Under the pieces are notes generated by a model. That model searched no databases. It was not told where the DNA came from and saw nothing but the letters and a program-made list of their open reading frames with translations. Both the position numbers and the translations under genes were made by a program. From Escherichia phage RobRod40: DNA of 47,574 bases. This document shows positions 9,770-15,767 of this stretch, in pieces (position 1 is the stretch's first letter; each line of letters starts with the position of its first letter). The stretch is taken from sequence record OR896835.1, one strand, 5' to 3'.

Positions 9770-10211
9770 TTTTATACCGAAGGCTAATGGTGGGGTTATT
9801 GAATTTAGCCGCTCCATTTCTGAATGGATAGATAAGGTTGAGTCTGGAGTTGAGGAAGTTGTTGCAGGAACCATTATCAACACAGCTAAGGGGCTGGTAG
9901 ATCAGTCACCAGTTGACACCGGAAGGTTCAAGGCCAACTGGCAAATAACAGCAAACTCCCCGGCTCAACAGTCAGTAATTGACTATGATAAGCTTGGGAC
10001 TGAGACAAAAAGAGCGCTCGCAAGACAGGCCAGGGCAGTAGCTAGATCGAAGGGAACAAAAGTTATTTACATAACAAACAGGCTTGATTACTCAATTCAC
10101 CTTGAGTATGGCGGCTCAGGCCAGGCTCCAAACGGCATCATTAGGATTGTTCAAATGAGGCTTGGTAGATACTTCCAGGAAGCTATAGAGGAGGCTAAGC
10201 GTGCACTATGA
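9762..10211 (+). CDS. putative neck / tail completion protein
   Basis: ATG at 9762 overlapping upstream stop; track ORF 9585..10211 has implausible N-terminal extension; position-based call. Confidence 0.4.
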   Translation: MASFIPKANGGVIEFSRSISEWIDKVESGVEEVVAGTIINTAKGLVDQSPVDTGRFKANWQITANSPAQQSVIDYDKLGTETKRALARQARAVARSKGTKVIYITNRLDYSIHLEYGGSGQAPNGIIRIVQMRLGRYFQEAIEEAKRAL

Positions 10212-10602
10212 ATTATCTATAGCAGCCAGAAAATATGTTAATGATTTGCTGGTGAGCAACTTCCCTGTCAGATATCCAGTATCCTGGGAAAATGTTTCTT
10301 TCACTCCTCCAGCAGATGGCTCTATCTGGCTAAAGTATGACTATATCGAGGTTGATACCGTAACCTACGGACTTAGCAGGAAGTGCAAATACTATGTAGG
10401 AATGGTGCAGGTTTCTGTTTTCTTTAGCCCTGGTACTGGCATTGACAAGCCGAGACAAATCGCTAATCAATTGGCAGAATCTATCGTTGATGGTACAATG
10501 CTTGACAGCGGGACCATTTATGAGTCTGGAGTTGTTAACCCGGTTATCAAATCCAAATCTGGGTGGTTTATCCCGGTTCATTTTTATGTTCGTCTAGACT
10601 AG
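10201..10602 (+). CDS. putative tail terminator-like protein
   Basis: GTG start preceded by GGAGG; overlaps upstream stop; position before major tail gene. Confidence 0.4.
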   Translation: MHYELSIAARKYVNDLLVSNFPVRYPVSWENVSFTPPADGSIWLKYDYIEVDTVTYGLSRKCKYYVGMVQVSVFFSPGTGIDKPRQIANQLAESIVDGTMLDSGTIYESGVVNPVIKSKSGWFIPVHFYVRLD

Positions 10603-10610
10603 GAACTAGC

Positions 10611-11096
10611 ATGAAAGATTTCTTAAATTCTCTTTACGATTATCGCGATGGAAAGATTTACAAGAAGGGCGGTGATAAACCATGTGGTTACGGTAAGACA
10701 AATGGCTACGTTCAAACATACGTTTCAAAGACTGGTAAGCGATATGTTCATAGATTGATCTGGGAAATGCATAATGGTGAAATTGCATATGGAATGCAGA
10801 TAGATCACATTAATGGTGTTAGGGATGATAATCGAATTGAGAATTTAAGATGCGTGACCGTAACTGATAACAGAAGAAATGCTGGAACCAGGTATCGCTC
10901 ACGTAGATTTCCTGGAGTTAATGGAGTAAACTACAACAAGCGCGATGATCTTTGGCATGCAATTATTTCTGACAAAGGAAGAGCAAGGAGTCTTGGTCAT
11001 TATAAGAGTTTTGTCTCAGCTTGCGAAGCAAGGATTGTCGCTGAAGTATTATTGGGATATCACGCTGGTCACGCAATGCGGGATAGCGTTTATTAA
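10611..11096 (+). CDS. HNH homing endonuclease (paralog 2)
   Basis: ATG at 10611 after AGGA; HRLIWEMHNG and IDHINGVRDDNRIENLR motifs; inserted between tail-completion and major tail genes. Confidence 0.85.
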   Translation: MKDFLNSLYDYRDGKIYKKGGDKPCGYGKTNGYVQTYVSKTGKRYVHRLIWEMHNGEIAYGMQIDHINGVRDDNRIENLRCVTVTDNRRNAGTRYRSRRFPGVNGVNYNKRDDLWHAIISDKGRARSLGHYKSFVSACEARIVAEVLLGYHAGHAMRDSVY

Positions 11097-11105
11097 TCTA
11101 ACTTA

Positions 11106-11780
11106 TTGAATTGGAGGTGTATTATTGCCCATCTCAGCAATGGCACGCAGGTCTTCGTAGAAGGCTCTCGCGGAGCTGCAATTGACGTAACTGCAATTTC
11201 TAACTCAGTTACCCCTGTTTTAACTGTATCTGACGCATCTGGATTGGTTGTTGGTGATTACCTTCTTTTCACCTCTTCTGCCTCCACGCTTCTGGCTGAT
11301 AAGCAAGTTCGCGTAACTGCAATCACTGGTACGTCAGTAACTGTTGAAGGTATTGATACCTCTAGCACTACAAAGTTCCCAGCCGGTTTAACTGGTGAGG
11401 TTGTTAAAATCACCTCTTGGTTCGAAGTTCCGTGTGTTCAGGACGTATCTACTGATGGCGGCGAACAGCAGTTCGTTAACTTCCAGTGTTTGTCCGATGA
11501 CCGTGAACAGCAGATTCCGACTTATAAATCTGCCGTAACGAATACCTTCACCTTTGCTCACGAGTACACCAACCCGGTCTATCCGGTCCTGCGTAACTAC
11601 GATGAGTCAGGTCAGGTTGTCGCGATTCGCCTGTTCGTACCTCGAGCTAGCGAAATGCGTTTGCAGTCCGGCACTATCGCTTTCAATGACACCCCCACCA
11701 TTGGTGTTAACGAAATCGAAACGGTATCCATCGCAGTATCCATTCGTGGCCGCCTGTCCTCTGTGGCAGCTGAAGTTTAA
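11106..11780 (+). CDS. major tail (tube) protein
   Basis: ~220 aa; strong terminator immediately downstream; position before chaperone and tape measure; start uncertain (no in-frame ATG/GTG near GGAGG at 11113-11117). Confidence 0.6.
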   Translation: MNWRCIIAHLSNGTQVFVEGSRGAAIDVTAISNSVTPVLTVSDASGLVVGDYLLFTSSASTLLADKQVRVTAITGTSVTVEGIDTSSTTKFPAGLTGEVVKITSWFEVPCVQDVSTDGGEQQFVNFQCLSDDREQQIPTYKSAVTNTFTFAHEYTNPVYPVLRNYDESGQVVAIRLFVPRASEMRLQSGTIAFNDTPTIGVNEIETVSIAVSIRGRLSSVAAEV

Positions 11781-11787
11781 AACATAA

Positions 11788-11809
11788 ACCCTCTTCGGAG
11801 GGTTTTTTA
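11788..11809 (+). terminator. rho-independent terminator after major tail gene
   Basis: ACCCTC-ttcg-GAGGGT hairpin then TTTTTT. Confidence 0.8.
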
Positions 11810-11813
11810 TTGC

Positions 11814-11857
11814 ATAGCACTTTTTGCTAAAGCACTTATTCAACTTTGATGTATAGT
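11814..11857 (+). promoter_or_regulatory. conserved promoter-like module (ATAGCAC-ttt-TTGCTAAA, 22 bp, TATAGT)
   Basis: Directly after major-tail terminator; followed by TACTTCATCGAAACGA leader; precedes lipoprotein gene. Confidence 0.6.
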
Positions 11858-11890
11858 TACTTCATCGAAACGAAATGAGAGATTAAAGAA

Positions 11891-12277
11891 ATGAAAGCAA
11901 TCATCGCAATTATGGCAACACTGCTACTTGCTGGCTGTAACAGCGATAAGGTTAAGACACTTAATGTTGATCTGGCTTCAAATGAATGCAAGAACATCGT
12001 ATACAACGCGACGGTTAACAATGAGGCATTTACTAGGCTTTCATTCAAATACCCAGAACTTAAAGATTCCGTTATGTACGTGGCCCACATTGAGTGCACT
12101 AAATCTGTTAACAATTTTACCCGTGGTGTTGTAATTGAACACACCACAACATTGGCAAAGGTATCAAAGCCTAGTGACGCTTCAATCGCGATGGTTTATA
12201 CTAAGATCTATAGTTTAGAGGCTCTCGCTAGTATGGTTGGCGAGAAACTAGCTTACTCACGCGTTGTTATGAAATAA
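11891..12277 (+). CDS. predicted lipoprotein inserted in tail module
   Basis: N-terminal signal peptide with lipobox LLAGC; own promoter-like module upstream. Confidence 0.65.
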   Translation: MKAIIAIMATLLLAGCNSDKVKTLNVDLASNECKNIVYNATVNNEAFTRLSFKYPELKDSVMYVAHIECTKSVNNFTRGVVIEHTTTLAKVSKPSDASIAMVYTKIYSLEALASMVGEKLAYSRVVMK

Positions 12278-12295
12278 AATAGAGGATAAAACGAG

Positions 12296-12610
12296 ATGGC
12301 AAAGTTCAAACTTTCACTGGCGGCACTGCCAGACTTCAAGCTCCCAGTAAAATTTAAGCTGGCTAACGACCAGGATGTAGAGGTTGTTTTTACAGTTAAG
12401 CACAAGAAGACCTCTGAGCTTCAGGAGCTACTACAGAAAGAAGACCTGAGCACTAAAGAATTGATTATGGCAATCGCCTCTGATTGGGATCTGGAAGAAG
12501 AATTTAATGAAGAAAACGTCATTGAGTTTGCTGATTTATTCCCGTCATCCACAGTTGCGCTAACAACTGCTTACATGCAAGCATTGGCTGGGCAGCGAGT
12601 AAAAAACTAA
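12296..12610 (+). CDS. tail assembly chaperone (gpG-like)
   Basis: 104-aa acidic protein immediately upstream of tape measure; ends with slippery A_AAA_AAC before stop. Confidence 0.7.
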   Translation: MAKFKLSLAALPDFKLPVKFKLANDQDVEVVFTVKHKKTSELQELLQKEDLSTKELIMAIASDWDLEEEFNEENVIEFADLFPSSTVALTTAYMQALAGQRVKN

Positions 12611-12930
12611 AACGAGCGGTGTATCTACAGTACCAGTCAGAGCCAACAGATGCCGAACTGGAAGCTATTGGGATGCGCCGCTCTGATTACGAAGACGAAG
12701 AACCTGAGGTTTTACACTTCGACGAAAACATGATGAAAGCGTGGGACATTTATTGTTCAATGGCTACACAATGGAGGGTTGGAGCTAACGGAGCTACGGG
12801 TCTCGATTACAACGTGCTAAATTTCCTCTTTAGAGTGTATAATGTCTCAGAAGAAGAATTGGTGCTCAGCGATTTACGCATCCTTGAAGCTAAGGCTCTA
12901 GAGATGATGGATAACCTGAGAAAAAAATAA
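12296..12930 (+). CDS. tail assembly chaperone frameshift fusion (gpGT-like), predicted -1 shift at 12601-12607
   Basis: Downstream ORF (track 12619..12930) is in the -1 frame relative to G-like ORF and remains open upstream through the slippery site; conserved lambda-like G/GT arrangement. Confidence 0.6.
12601..12607 (+). other. predicted -1 programmed ribosomal frameshift slippery heptamer A_AAA_AAC
   Basis: XXXYYYZ heptamer just before G-like stop; -1 frame continues into T-like ORF. Confidence 0.6.
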
Positions 12931-12953
12931 CCCGCTTCGGCGGGTTTTCTATT
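12931..12953 (+). terminator. terminator/attenuator between chaperone and tape measure
   Basis: CCCGC-ttcg-GCGGG hairpin then TTTTCTATT. Confidence 0.6.
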
Positions 12954-12965
12954 ATGGAGGCTTAG

Positions 12966-15737
12966 ATGGCAACAAATGAATTAGCCGGAATCACACTAGC
13001 CGTAGACGTATCGCAGGTAGATAGGGGAACGCAATCCCTACAGAAGTTTAGGCAGGCTAACCAACAGGCCGCTTCCGGTATTAGTGAATTCGTCAACGCT
13101 GAGCAGGTCGCTAAAAACCAGGCTAGAGACACCGCGCGAGCACTTGCTGAGCAACAGGCTTCACTAGCTAAGCTGCAAACAGCTATTGATCCAACTGCGG
13201 CAAAGTTCCGCAAGCTGCAAGAGGCTGCGGTAGGTCTCGATAAGGCATTCGCGGCTGGAGTGGTGCCTGATGAGGAATTTTTCCGATTAGGTGAGGCTCT
13301 TGAAACTCAAAACGCAAAACTTGCTCGTTCACGTGCTGCGCTAACTGAAGAGGGGAGGGCTGCGGCTCAGGCTGCAAAGGATAAGGCAAAGGCAAAGGCT
13401 GAAGCGGATAGATTTATTGCGTCACTGCAACGACAGGCTCAAGCGGCAACATTGACGCGTGAAGAGTACTTGAAGTTGCAGGCGGCCCAGCTTGGCGTAT
13501 CCGCACAGGCGACCCCATTAATCAACCAGATTGGAGCAGCAACCCAAAGGACTGTTGAAAATCTTGGCAAGCAAGCCGCAGCATTCCAGAGGTCAGGTTT
13601 AAGTGCGGGACAATACAAGAATGCGATTTCTCAGTTACCAGCACAGATTACTGATATTGGTACATCATTAGCTGGCGGCATTCCTATTTGGCTTATTGCA
13701 ATCCAGCAGGGTGGGCAGATTAAGGATTCATTTGGCGGCATTGCTAATACTGCGAGATTCCTTCTTTCTTATCTCAACCCTCTCACAGTAGCCGCTGGCG
13801 TTCTTGGTGCTGGCTTTGCTTACGCCGCGGTAAGTATTTACAAGAGCGAGGCAGCCATTAAGGCAGCAAGAAAGGCGGTTGAGGAAACTCTGGGTGTCAC
13901 AGATGAGGCGGCTCGACAGTTAAGCATTAGCATCGCCAAGATTTCAGAGGCATCAGGGAAGACCGCTGAAGATATCGCGAAGTCATTCGTATCAACACGT
14001 GACGGAGCGCAAGAAGCAATTCTGAAGCTGATTGATGTTGGTGTAAGTTATGATGATGCAAGGGAGCTAGTTGAGCGATATAAGGATGCCTCCAACTTTA
14101 CCCAAGTTAACGCGCAAATCGAGCAACACAGACTTGAAGCTGCAAAGATTCAGGATAGCTGGTTCGAGAACGCAAAGGCCGTTAGCTACTATAACGATGT
14201 TGCAGTCCAGGGCCTAGTTAACTCACCACTAACAAACGTGGCGGCAAGAAACAGCGCGGCAATTCAGGAGTTCGCAAGCCTTCTGGAAAAGGACGTTAAC
14301 CAAGCTCTTATAGATGGAAATAGACATGTAGCCGAGCAAGTTGATTTAATCGGTAAAGAATACTTGGCACTTGACCGCGTGGCTGGTGCGGAGAAATCCC
14401 TGGCAGACGCTAGAAAGCAAGCAGCGGCAATCGCCAGAAGCGGTAACGCTGAAGCTATCGCCCAGGCCAATAGAGTCATTCAGTTGCGTCAGCGAGAGGT
14501 TGATGAAGCCAAGAAGGCCGAAGCGGAGAGAAATAAGCCAGCAAAAACGAAAGCACCAAAGGAAGCCAGAGACCTTACCATCAATTATGAGTCAGGAGTC
14601 CTTGCTCTTGAGGCGCAGTTAAGGCTTCTTCAGGACGTAGGGAGTCAGACAAAGGCAATCAGCACTGAGCGGAGAAAGCTTCTTGAGGAAGAAGCTAAGT
14701 TTGCAATCCTTGAGGAGCGTCAAGCAGCTGGTACAATAGGAAGAGAACAGGCCAGGCTTCTTCTTGAAAAGGATAAAGTTCTTGAACTAGCAAGACAGAA
14801 GGCTGAACTAGGTGATCAGATTGTTTTGCAGGAGCGCGCTAATAAGCTGGCTGAGGATAACCGCAAAAAGATTCTTCAGATAAACAACGAAGCAAATAAC
14901 ATCGATTTGGGCGCTGGGTTATCATCTCGGGATCAACAAAGGTCAAGAGAGATTCAGGCTCTTCAGTCCAATCAGGAAAACGCTGGTGGTTCTCTTGATG
15001 ACTTAGATTTCCAGCAATTACTGGAAGCAAGAAGGCAGTACTACAAGGATGAGGATAATCTCAGAGCAAACTGGAAAGCAGGTGTGACCTCCACTCTCTC
15101 TGACTTGAGTGATGAGTATACCAACTTCAACAAAATCGCCGGGGATTTAACCGCTGCGGCATTCAATGGAATTACCGATCAGATTACAAACCTTGTAACC
15201 ACTGGTGAGACCAACTTCCGGGAGTTCACCGCAAACATCCTCAAAATGATTGCTAAGATTGCAACTCAATTACTTTTGGTTAAGGCTATTGAATCTACAA
15301 TCAAGAGCTTTGGTGGTAACACTGGCGCGGGTAGTGCCTTCGAGTCAATAAGGTCAGCAATTGGTTTCGCTGGTGGTGGTTACACTGGTGATGGTGGAAA
15401 GTACCAGCCAGCGGGTACGGTACACCGAGGTGAATTCGTATTCACAAAAGAAGCAACAAGCCGAATTGGTGTTAAGAACCTTTACGCACTGATGAAAGGT
15501 TACGCAAATGGCGGTGCTGTAGGTGGCCCATCTGGTTATGCTAATGGCGGTTTGGTTTCTGGTGGGTCAGATGTTAATGTTAGTGGTATCACCGTTAACG
15601 TTAATGGTGGCGTTGGTAGCGACCCAGAACAGGCCAAAGCATTGCAGAGTGGCGTTAAGGCAATCGTAGCTGAAGAGATTGCTCAGTCTTTCCAGCAGGG
15701 AGGCAAAGCGTATGCCTATTTGAGAGGTTTTAACTAA
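12966..15737 (+). CDS. tail tape measure protein
   Basis: 923 aa, Ala/Gln/Glu-rich coiled-coil-like with Gly-rich C-terminal region; RBS GGAGG; follows G/GT chaperone. Confidence 0.85.
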   Translation: MATNELAGITLAVDVSQVDRGTQSLQKFRQANQQAASGISEFVNAEQVAKNQARDTARALAEQQASLAKLQTAIDPTAAKFRKLQEAAVGLDKAFAAGVVPDEEFFRLGEALETQNAKLARSRAALTEEGRAAAQAAKDKAKAKAEADRFIASLQRQAQAATLTREEYLKLQAAQLGVSAQATPLINQIGAATQRTVENLGKQAAAFQRSGLSAGQYKNAISQLPAQITDIGTSLAGGIPIWLIAIQQGGQIKDSFGGIANTARFLLSYLNPLTVAAGVLGAGFAYAAVSIYKSEAAIKAARKAVEETLGVTDEAARQLSISIAKISEASGKTAEDIAKSFVSTRDGAQEAILKLIDVGVSYDDARELVERYKDASNFTQVNAQIEQHRLEAAKIQDSWFENAKAVSYYNDVAVQGLVNSPLTNVAARNSAAIQEFASLLEKDVNQALIDGNRHVAEQVDLIGKEYLALDRVAGAEKSLADARKQAAAIARSGNAEAIAQANRVIQLRQREVDEAKKAEAERNKPAKTKAPKEARDLTINYESGVLALEAQLRLLQDVGSQTKAISTERRKLLEEEAKFAILEERQAAGTIGREQARLLLEKDKVLELARQKAELGDQIVLQERANKLAEDNRKKILQINNEANNIDLGAGLSSRDQQRSREIQALQSNQENAGGSLDDLDFQQLLEARRQYYKDEDNLRANWKAGVTSTLSDLSDEYTNFNKIAGDLTAAAFNGITDQITNLVTTGETNFREFTANILKMIAKIATQLLLVKAIESTIKSFGGNTGAGSAFESIRSAIGFAGGGYTGDGGKYQPAGTVHRGEFVFTKEATSRIGVKNLYALMKGYANGGAVGGPSGYANGGLVSGGSDVNVSGITVNVNGGVGSDPEQAKALQSGVKAIVAEEIAQSFQQGGKAYAYLRGFN

Positions 15738-15767
15738 TTAATGGGGCTTCGGCCCCTAAGGATTTTT

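Follow-up and report, generated by a model that had tools for sequence, protein, structure and literature searches.

How the second of two overlapping tail genes of Escherichia phage RobRod40 is expressed is the question raised by a short stretch of its genome: the gene could be translated as a C-terminal extension of the first, after a programmed ribosomal frameshift, or as a protein of its own. Since 1993-2004, frameshifting of the G/GT type has belonged to the textbook knowledge on long-tailed phages. The frameshift in tail chaperone genes is widely conserved in these phages (PMC5009743). In phage lambda, where the -1 frameshift that produces G and G-T was described by Levin et al. (1993) and Xu, Hendrix and Duda (2004, 2013, 2014; summarised in PMC5009743), the tape measure protein is bound by G and by the G portion of G-T, and T brings in the tube protein (PMC5009743). 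All coordinates given here refer to the window, by which we mean the whole stretch of RobRod40 DNA that was analysed (sequence record OR896835.1, 47,574 nucleotides, one strand, 5′ to 3′).

Our analysis points to a G/GT-type -1 programmed frameshift at the heptamer A_AAA_AAC, which very probably yields both a G protein of 104 amino acids and a G-T fusion of 211. The sequences and their comparison show the layout of the locus, the protein families, a slip site conserved at the level of the nucleotides, the lack of a conserved start for T and a strong local structure; from these we infer that the shift takes place, how efficient it is and that the products act as in lambda.

The chaperone gene pair of RobRod40

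RobRod40 is an Rtp-like coliphage (Drexlerviridae, Braunvirinae). Phages AugustePiccard and Rtp share 91% nucleotide identity with its region 11800-13100, to which 80 phage records can be aligned at 80-95% identity. The tail genes are arranged in the order tube protein, an ORF with the TAC_4 family signature, an ORF in the -1 frame with that of DUF1799, and the tape measure protein, which would be the client of the chaperone (Table 1).

Table 1. Features in and around the tail assembly chaperone genes of RobRod40
Feature	Position in the window	Strand	Remarks
Major tail (tube) protein gene	11106..11780	+	Pfam Phage_tail_3, E 4.5e-68; phrog_584
Shine-Dalgarno sequence AGAGGA of the chaperone gene	12281..12286	+	9 nt before ATG 12296; anti-SD duplex -5.8 kcal/mol
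G-like tail assembly chaperone (ORF1), 104 aa, 11.8 kDa	12296..12610	+	Zero frame; TAA at 12608-12610
Slippery heptamer A_AAA_AAC	12601..12607	+	Register X_XXY_YYZ; abuts the zero-frame stop
T-like segment, 107 aa	12607..12930	+	-1 frame after the predicted slip; DUF1799; phrog_17368 columns 107-210
Predicted RNA stem-loop, 70 nt	12614..12683	+	6 nt 3′ of the heptamer; 13-bp lower stem plus upper stems
Terminator-like hairpin	12929..12946	+	AACCCGC-UUCG-GCGGGUU, then UUCUAUU
Tape measure protein gene, 923 aa	12966..15737	+	Pfam TMP_2 and Tape_meas_lam_C; phrog_24

ORF1 matches the Pfam family Phage_TAC_4 (PF08748) over the full profile (positions 1-124 of 124; E 2.4e-34, 118.6 bits against a gathering cut-off of 21.1) as well as phrog_569 and phrog_17368, and its homologues are rtp35 of Rtp and gp40 of T1. 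As the original prediction had stated, this G-like ORF ends in GTA (12599-12601), AAA (12602-12604), AAC (12605-12607) and TAA, and we confirm the coordinates that it gave for A_AAA_AAC; the heptamer is the sole canonical X_XXY_YYZ motif in the 76-nt overlap of the two ORFs. Also as predicted, the T-like ORF reads through the site in the -1 frame: that frame opens at 12535, directly after a TGA at 12532-12534, and continues to the TAA at 12928-12930. Its product matches DUF1799 (PF08809), again over the full profile (positions 1-80 of 80; E 3e-16, 59.9 bits against a gathering cut-off of 26), and is homologous to Rtp rtp36 and T1 gp39. The ORF finder starts this ORF2 at GTG 12619 and assigns it 103 residues.

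The predicted G-T fusion would have a mass of 24.3 kDa, with ...GQRVKN joined to LKRAVYLQYQ at the junction. PHROG 17368 has 213 columns, of which ORF1 aligns to 1-107 and the -1 product to 107-210; because the two ORFs match successive columns of one family, this family is one of fused products. In other searches, the fusion found no match in PDB sequences at E <= 1 and none among the NCBIfam models, the lambda G and T families were not among the Pfam matches (E <= 0.1), and a large protein database queried with the fusion returned a single match, a DUF1799 protein of 123 amino acids.

Conservation of the slip site among relatives

A tblastn search of phage records with the predicted 211-residue fusion gave matches in 1154 records; in 872 of them the matches extend over 80% or more of the query, nearly always split into two pieces that lie in two frames. 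We collected 82 loci, in which the identity of ORF1 ranges from 97% down to about 24%. At 81 of these 82, the stop codon of ORF1 is in the same position and immediately preceded by the slip motif, and a -1 ORF of 103-107 amino acids is open through the junction. The peptide L(K/R)RAVYL is conserved and begins exactly at the slip position, before any start codon.

Only one record, that of Enterobacter phage N5822 (our locus L020, MW032452.1), matched the fusion query in a single piece. We considered it as a naturally fused gene and rejected it: its ORF1 is truncated at 89 amino acids, and the homology to the chaperones changes frame more than once. The record is 78 kb long and labelled 'circular', against about 50 kb for its relatives, and the locus is likely to contain an assembly or sequence error.

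The nucleotides of the slip site are more constrained than the encoded amino acids would lead one to expect. No synonymous position of the heptamer varies in the 46 distinct gene pairs that carry A_AAA_AAC; as these pairs are phylogenetically related, they do not count as independent events. The codon that precedes AAA is GTA, GCA or ACA, with A as its third base in 46/46, whereas only 26% of the Val, Ala and Thr codons elsewhere in these genes end in A. Likewise, the slip-site Lys is AAA in 46/46 (70% elsewhere in these genes) and the slip-site Asn is AAC in 46/46 (60% elsewhere), whereas the Arg codon just 5′ of the slip codons uses all four CGN forms. The first codon encodes three different amino acids, which implies that it changed repeatedly while its A was kept. 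This pattern of codon use indicates that the slip site is conserved through selection on the nucleotides, not on the protein. At the same place in a distant Ralstonia phage the sequence reads CGG GGA AAC TGA, that is, G_GGA_AAC abutting the stop.

Some relatives deviate at the slip site. In Webervirus (Klebsiella phages, our loci L073-L100) the layout of G and a -1 T is kept without a canonical heptamer, and the site reads GCA AAA GTT TAA, with only A_AAA; a clade that resembles Rogue1 and AHS24 (L036-L046) also keeps the layout, again without a canonical heptamer, and has GCA AAG GTC TAA, with only A_AAG. Both groups may rely on slippage of a single tRNA-Lys in the P site. Two further sequences, L003 (MN840485.1, 2183-2192) and L064 (IMGVR_UViG_2974632794, about 1107-1115), read GTAAAAACTAA, with five A instead of six; their ORF1 is extended to 117-122 amino acids, and the -1 relationship is broken. 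A homopolymer sequencing error is the likeliest explanation for the five-A sites, and the A run of the slip site is evidently indel-prone.

Among the relatives found, we also noted records with unexpected hosts: 'Pseudomonas phage PsgS01F' (PP134917.1) matches the chaperone region at about 91% nucleotide identity and has the same length as E. coli phage PCEc3 (44679 bp), and 'Campylobacter phage A127' (MG065667.1) gives a tblastn match of about 60% identity to the chaperone region. The host labels or the sample purity of such Pseudomonas and Campylobacter records look doubtful.

Alternatives to a ribosomal frameshift

T could instead be a separate protein of 103 residues that starts at GTG 12619, where ribosomes might initiate de novo or, having terminated at the UAA of ORF1, reinitiate; in that case the heptamer would be incidental. 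All Rtp-clade sequences do carry an in-frame GTG 8 nt past the stop, in relatives of the IME253 type this GTG is closely preceded by GAGGG (-6.3 kcal/mol), the annotators of PQ659294.1 noted an 'independent RBS', and most database records have two separate CDSs. However, GTG 12619 is the Val codon of LKRAVYL, and the corresponding codon is GTT, GTC or GTA in all non-Rtp clades; there, the first ATG, GTG or TTG in the T frame lies 50-149 nt beyond the stop, and initiation at that codon would truncate conserved residues. It is because of this distance to the first in-frame start that the annotators of T1 and of Klebsiella phage N141 called only truncated versions of ORF2. Conservation of the protein, moreover, reaches upstream of the GTG, up to the slip site. 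Nor is the Rtp-clade start well equipped: the best anti-SD pairing of the 20 nt upstream of GTG 12619 amounts to -2.2 kcal/mol, at a distance of 1 nt; the average 20-mer of these genes pairs more strongly (ORF1 and the tape measure gene have -5.8 and -9.3 kcal/mol, respectively), and the GTG is base-paired within the predicted stem-loop described below. The original prediction had named independent translation of T from this GTG as the outcome that would speak against a fusion. With no start for the downstream ORF near the junction in any non-Rtp clade, and with a GTG that lacks a usable Shine-Dalgarno sequence in the Rtp clade, that scenario is disfavoured, and we regard separate initiation as an improbable explanation for the locus. 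Reinitiation at GTG 12619 may give some free T in the Rtp clade; it cannot be the conserved mode of T expression.

Two other explanations concern the heptamer itself. It might be a chance occurrence between two independent adjacent genes with no recoding at all, and in favour of this, the window has 12 copies of AAAAAAC, no more than the 14.4 +/- 3.5 expected; we therefore dropped motif enrichment as an argument, since the bare motif alone is not beyond chance. What is beyond chance is the frame of the heptamer, its place abutting the stop and its conservation in relatives. Frame, place and synonymous invariance persist where the G proteins are only 47-97% identical to that of the window, and the Ralstonia phage has a different canonical heptamer at the same position, so that two independent adjacent genes with an accidental motif strike us as scarcely credible. 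Alternatively, the shift could occur in transcription, if RNA polymerase added an A to the run of six and thereby brought ..GTA AAA AAA CTA.. into one frame. The slip site does contain a homopolymer of six A, and the two database relatives with A5 show that the run is prone to indels, at least in sequencing. Productive transcriptional slippage, however, generally needs longer runs (see the general discussion in PMC5009743). The homologous sites of other clades, G_GGA_AAC, GCA_AAG_GTC and GCA_AAA_GTT, contain runs of only 3-4 identical bases, which fits re-pairing of tRNAs and not stuttering of a polymerase, and the final C of the heptamer, which is under selection (AAC in 46/46), matters when tRNAs re-pair but would have no role in polymerase slippage. 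We consider this route very unlikely. The G-T fusion that was originally predicted is supported by the gene identities, the gene order and the comparative data.

A predicted stem-loop 3′ of the slip site

Downstream of the heptamer, we found a predicted RNA stem-loop (12614-12683) that the original prediction had missed. Its lower stem pairs GAGCGGUGUAUCU (12614-12626) with GGAUGCGCCGCUC (12671-12683), and when every position was scanned, it proved to be the most stable local structure of the gene pair. The segment 12601-12720 folds with a minimum free energy of -39.5 kcal/mol (z -5.0), a stability reached by 0 of 200 dinucleotide shuffles. Upon synonymous recoding in the T frame, the observed -34.3 compares with -17.2 +/- 3.7 (z -4.6), and since none of 1000 recoded sequences was as stable, the amino acid sequence does not explain the structure. 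Stimulatory elements on the 3′ side are usually located 5-9 nt from the heptamer (PMC5009743), a range that includes the 6-nt spacer seen here. On the 5′ side, we did not find an SD-like stimulator 10-14 nt upstream; the best anti-SD pairing in 12576-12600 is -3.8 kcal/mol.

The arms of the stem-loop hardly vary within the Rtp clade. Among 11 sequences there is a single arm change, A12615G, and it keeps the pair (A-U to G-U); variation is found in the apical and internal loops, in the spacer and in the flanking codons. In an alignment of nine sequences, 1 of 51 arm positions varies, against 13% of the sites in the rest of ORF2. We found no covariation in the Rtp-clade stem-loop (no pair is changed on both sides), and a search of more divergent members of the clade yielded no further variation in the arms.

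The stem-loop is confined to the Rtp clade. In the nearest outgroup, Sd1, 5 of the 13 lower-stem pairs are broken, and neither Sd1, which keeps A_AAA_AAC, nor the Rogue1-like relatives have a comparable structure. Both nevertheless keep the two-frame layout, which implies that a structure is not obligatory. Hairpins at an equal distance from the slip site are a compact one, GGGCGGUU...AACCGCCC, in T1-like and TLS-like phages and another, CGGGCUG...CAGCCUG, in Webervirus; compared with synonymous recoding, the T1/TLS and Webervirus hairpins score z -1.5 to -3.3. In Rogue1-like phages there is no nearby 3′ hairpin. A covariation analysis of the T1/TLS hairpin found 83.7% of cells paired and one double change, no better than shuffles, and we do not count its pairing as evolutionary support. 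The 5′ arm lies on the R-A-V codons in Rtp, T1/TLS and Webervirus alike, but its 3′ partner differs between the three.

The position and stability of the RobRod40 stem-loop suggest that it may pause ribosomes over the heptamer and thereby raise the efficiency of frameshifting, a role for which we judge the chances to be evenly balanced. In addition or instead, the modelled structure may serve to mask GTG 12619. Across the lineages, the slip sites range over A_AAA_AAC, A_AAA_G, A_AAG and G_GGA_AAC. We put forward, tentatively and at somewhat less than even chances, a wider proposal: that the stem-loop is a genuine stimulator, and that in Drexlerviridae the slip site and the 3′ structure turn over by lineage, retuning the ratio of G to GT. 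The candidate stimulatory stem-loop and its apparent lineage-specific replacement are the sole elements of this locus that we have not found annotated or described.

Other features of the tail module

The original prediction had also pointed to a GC hairpin at 12931-12944 and had judged it too far away to stimulate frameshifting. Both points hold: the hairpin, CCCGC-TTCG-GCGGG, is present (the stem was scored as 12929-12946, followed by TTCTATTATG), and we rejected it as a stimulator on account of its distance from the slip site (about 320 nt) and its resemblance to an intrinsic terminator. It occupies the 35-nt gap between the stop of T and the start of the tape measure gene, is invariant in the clade, and has terminators annotated in its place in the relatives MK373793 and KY398841. 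It is one of three G+C hairpins with UUCG tetraloops at or beside tail-gene boundaries, the others being located after the tube gene (11786-11805) and just past the tape measure stop (15742-15758). Those at 11786-11805 and 12929-12946 score as terminators on both strands. The probable role of all three is to set expression ratios in the tail operon, as partial terminators or as ends that stabilise the mRNA.

Between the tube and chaperone genes lies an ORF of 128 amino acids (11891-12277, + strand) with a lipoprotein signal (MKAIIAIMATLLLAGC) and weak matches to LPAM_1 and to a Cor-like PHROG. It sits at the site of rtp34 in Rtp, an ORF of equal length (387 nt), and in many relatives (e.g. OzMSK and 2725-N35) the slot is filled by a shorter ORF of 249 nt; this replacement is the reason that most megablast matches have a coverage of 71%. 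The position is a variable, moron-like slot, and the ORF is possibly one for superinfection exclusion. Further upstream, an HNH endonuclease gene (10563-11096, + strand; Pfam HNH_3, E 5.8e-21; phrog_99) lies between the major tail protein gene and a tail terminator-like gene (10201-10602). The Rtp counterparts of these two neighbours, rtp32 and rtp33, are adjacent (15 nt apart). The HNH gene resembles a mobile homing endonuclease that has inserted into the tail module.

A model for expression of the G-like and T-like proteins

Most ribosomes would translate ORF1 to its UAA and release the 104-residue G. A small fraction, perhaps a few per cent, would slip back by one nucleotide on the heptamer, either through a tandem slip of tRNA-Lys and tRNA-Asn in the P and A sites or, alternatively, through a P-site slip while the adjacent stop is slowly decoded. 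The slipped ribosomes would resume at CUA 12607 in the -1 frame and complete the 211-residue G-T; the adjacent UAA and the 3′ stem-loop may both aid slipping. A_AAA_AAC is a known shift heptamer that is much less shift-prone in E. coli than A_AAA_AAG (PMC5009743). By itself it is only moderately slippery in E. coli, and this low shiftiness suits a low ratio of G-T to G. By analogy with lambda, many G and few G-T molecules would coat the tape measure protein, the T domain would then recruit the tail tube protein, and neither form of the chaperone would end up in the virion.

Database annotation

In Rtp-like and T1-like records, including the RefSeq entry of Rtp, the two ORFs are mostly annotated as two separate "tail length tape measure" or hypothetical proteins, and records for T1 and Klebsiella relatives contain a truncated version of the second ORF. 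The RobRod40 window should carry a joined CDS (12296..12607, 12607..12930). The practical value of our analysis lies mainly in such correct annotation, and biologically there is nothing new in principle.

Comparison with known systems

Like lambda G/G-T, the RobRod40 locus consists of two overlapping ORFs, the second in the -1 frame, located between the major tail and tape measure genes; a canonical X_XXY_YYZ heptamer lies near the end of G, and a short major product and a minor fusion product are predicted here. The differences are in the details: the heptamer is A_AAA_AAC and abuts the stop, whereas that of lambda is G_GGA_AAG; the Pfam families are Phage_TAC_4 and DUF1799; and a strong 3′ stem-loop is predicted in RobRod40. 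Relative to the layout of the type described by Xu et al. (2004), RobRod40 has the small lipoprotein-like ORF (11891-12277) interposed.

Outside the phage tail genes, the site resembles that of E. coli dnaX in having an A-rich Lys heptamer, read by E. coli ribosomes, with a stem-loop a few nucleotides downstream. The dnaX signal combines A_AAA_AAG with a 3′ stem-loop and a 5′ SD-like element. In RobRod40, unlike dnaX, the heptamer ends in AAC, a codon less slippery than AAG in E. coli, and the locus has no upstream SD-like element; the expected efficiency is accordingly low, a few per cent rather than the 50% of dnaX. The frameshift site of IS1 is the same A6C motif, and it works in E. coli at low efficiency. 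There, likewise, a -1 frameshift fuses two ORFs, insA and insB' (PMC5009743). Unlike RobRod40, IS1 is a transposable element that encodes unrelated proteins, and its zero-frame stop is not adjacent to the site.

The closest comparisons are with other phages of the family. The annotation of the close relative vB_ecoS_OzMSK (PQ659294.1) already joins the homologous pair into one frameshifted CDS, named 'tape measure chaperone'; tape measure chaperones with a conserved frameshift are mentioned for the T1-like phage Stevie (PMC4319613); and a frameshift was hypothesised for Rogue1 in a paper that noted the missing canonical site (PMC3496638). The frameshift is, for these reasons, already known. 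T1 gp40/gp39, Rtp rtp35/rtp36 and the OzMSK pair are direct homologues of the RobRod40 genes and have the same heptamer at the same position (in T1, GCA AAA AAC TAA). The 12614-12683 stem-loop, in contrast, is a feature of the Rtp clade alone, its place being taken by the compact hairpin in T1-like and TLS-like phages. If the stem-loop is indeed stimulatory and has been replaced in the sister clades, these phages would provide a natural series for the tuning of frameshift efficiency.
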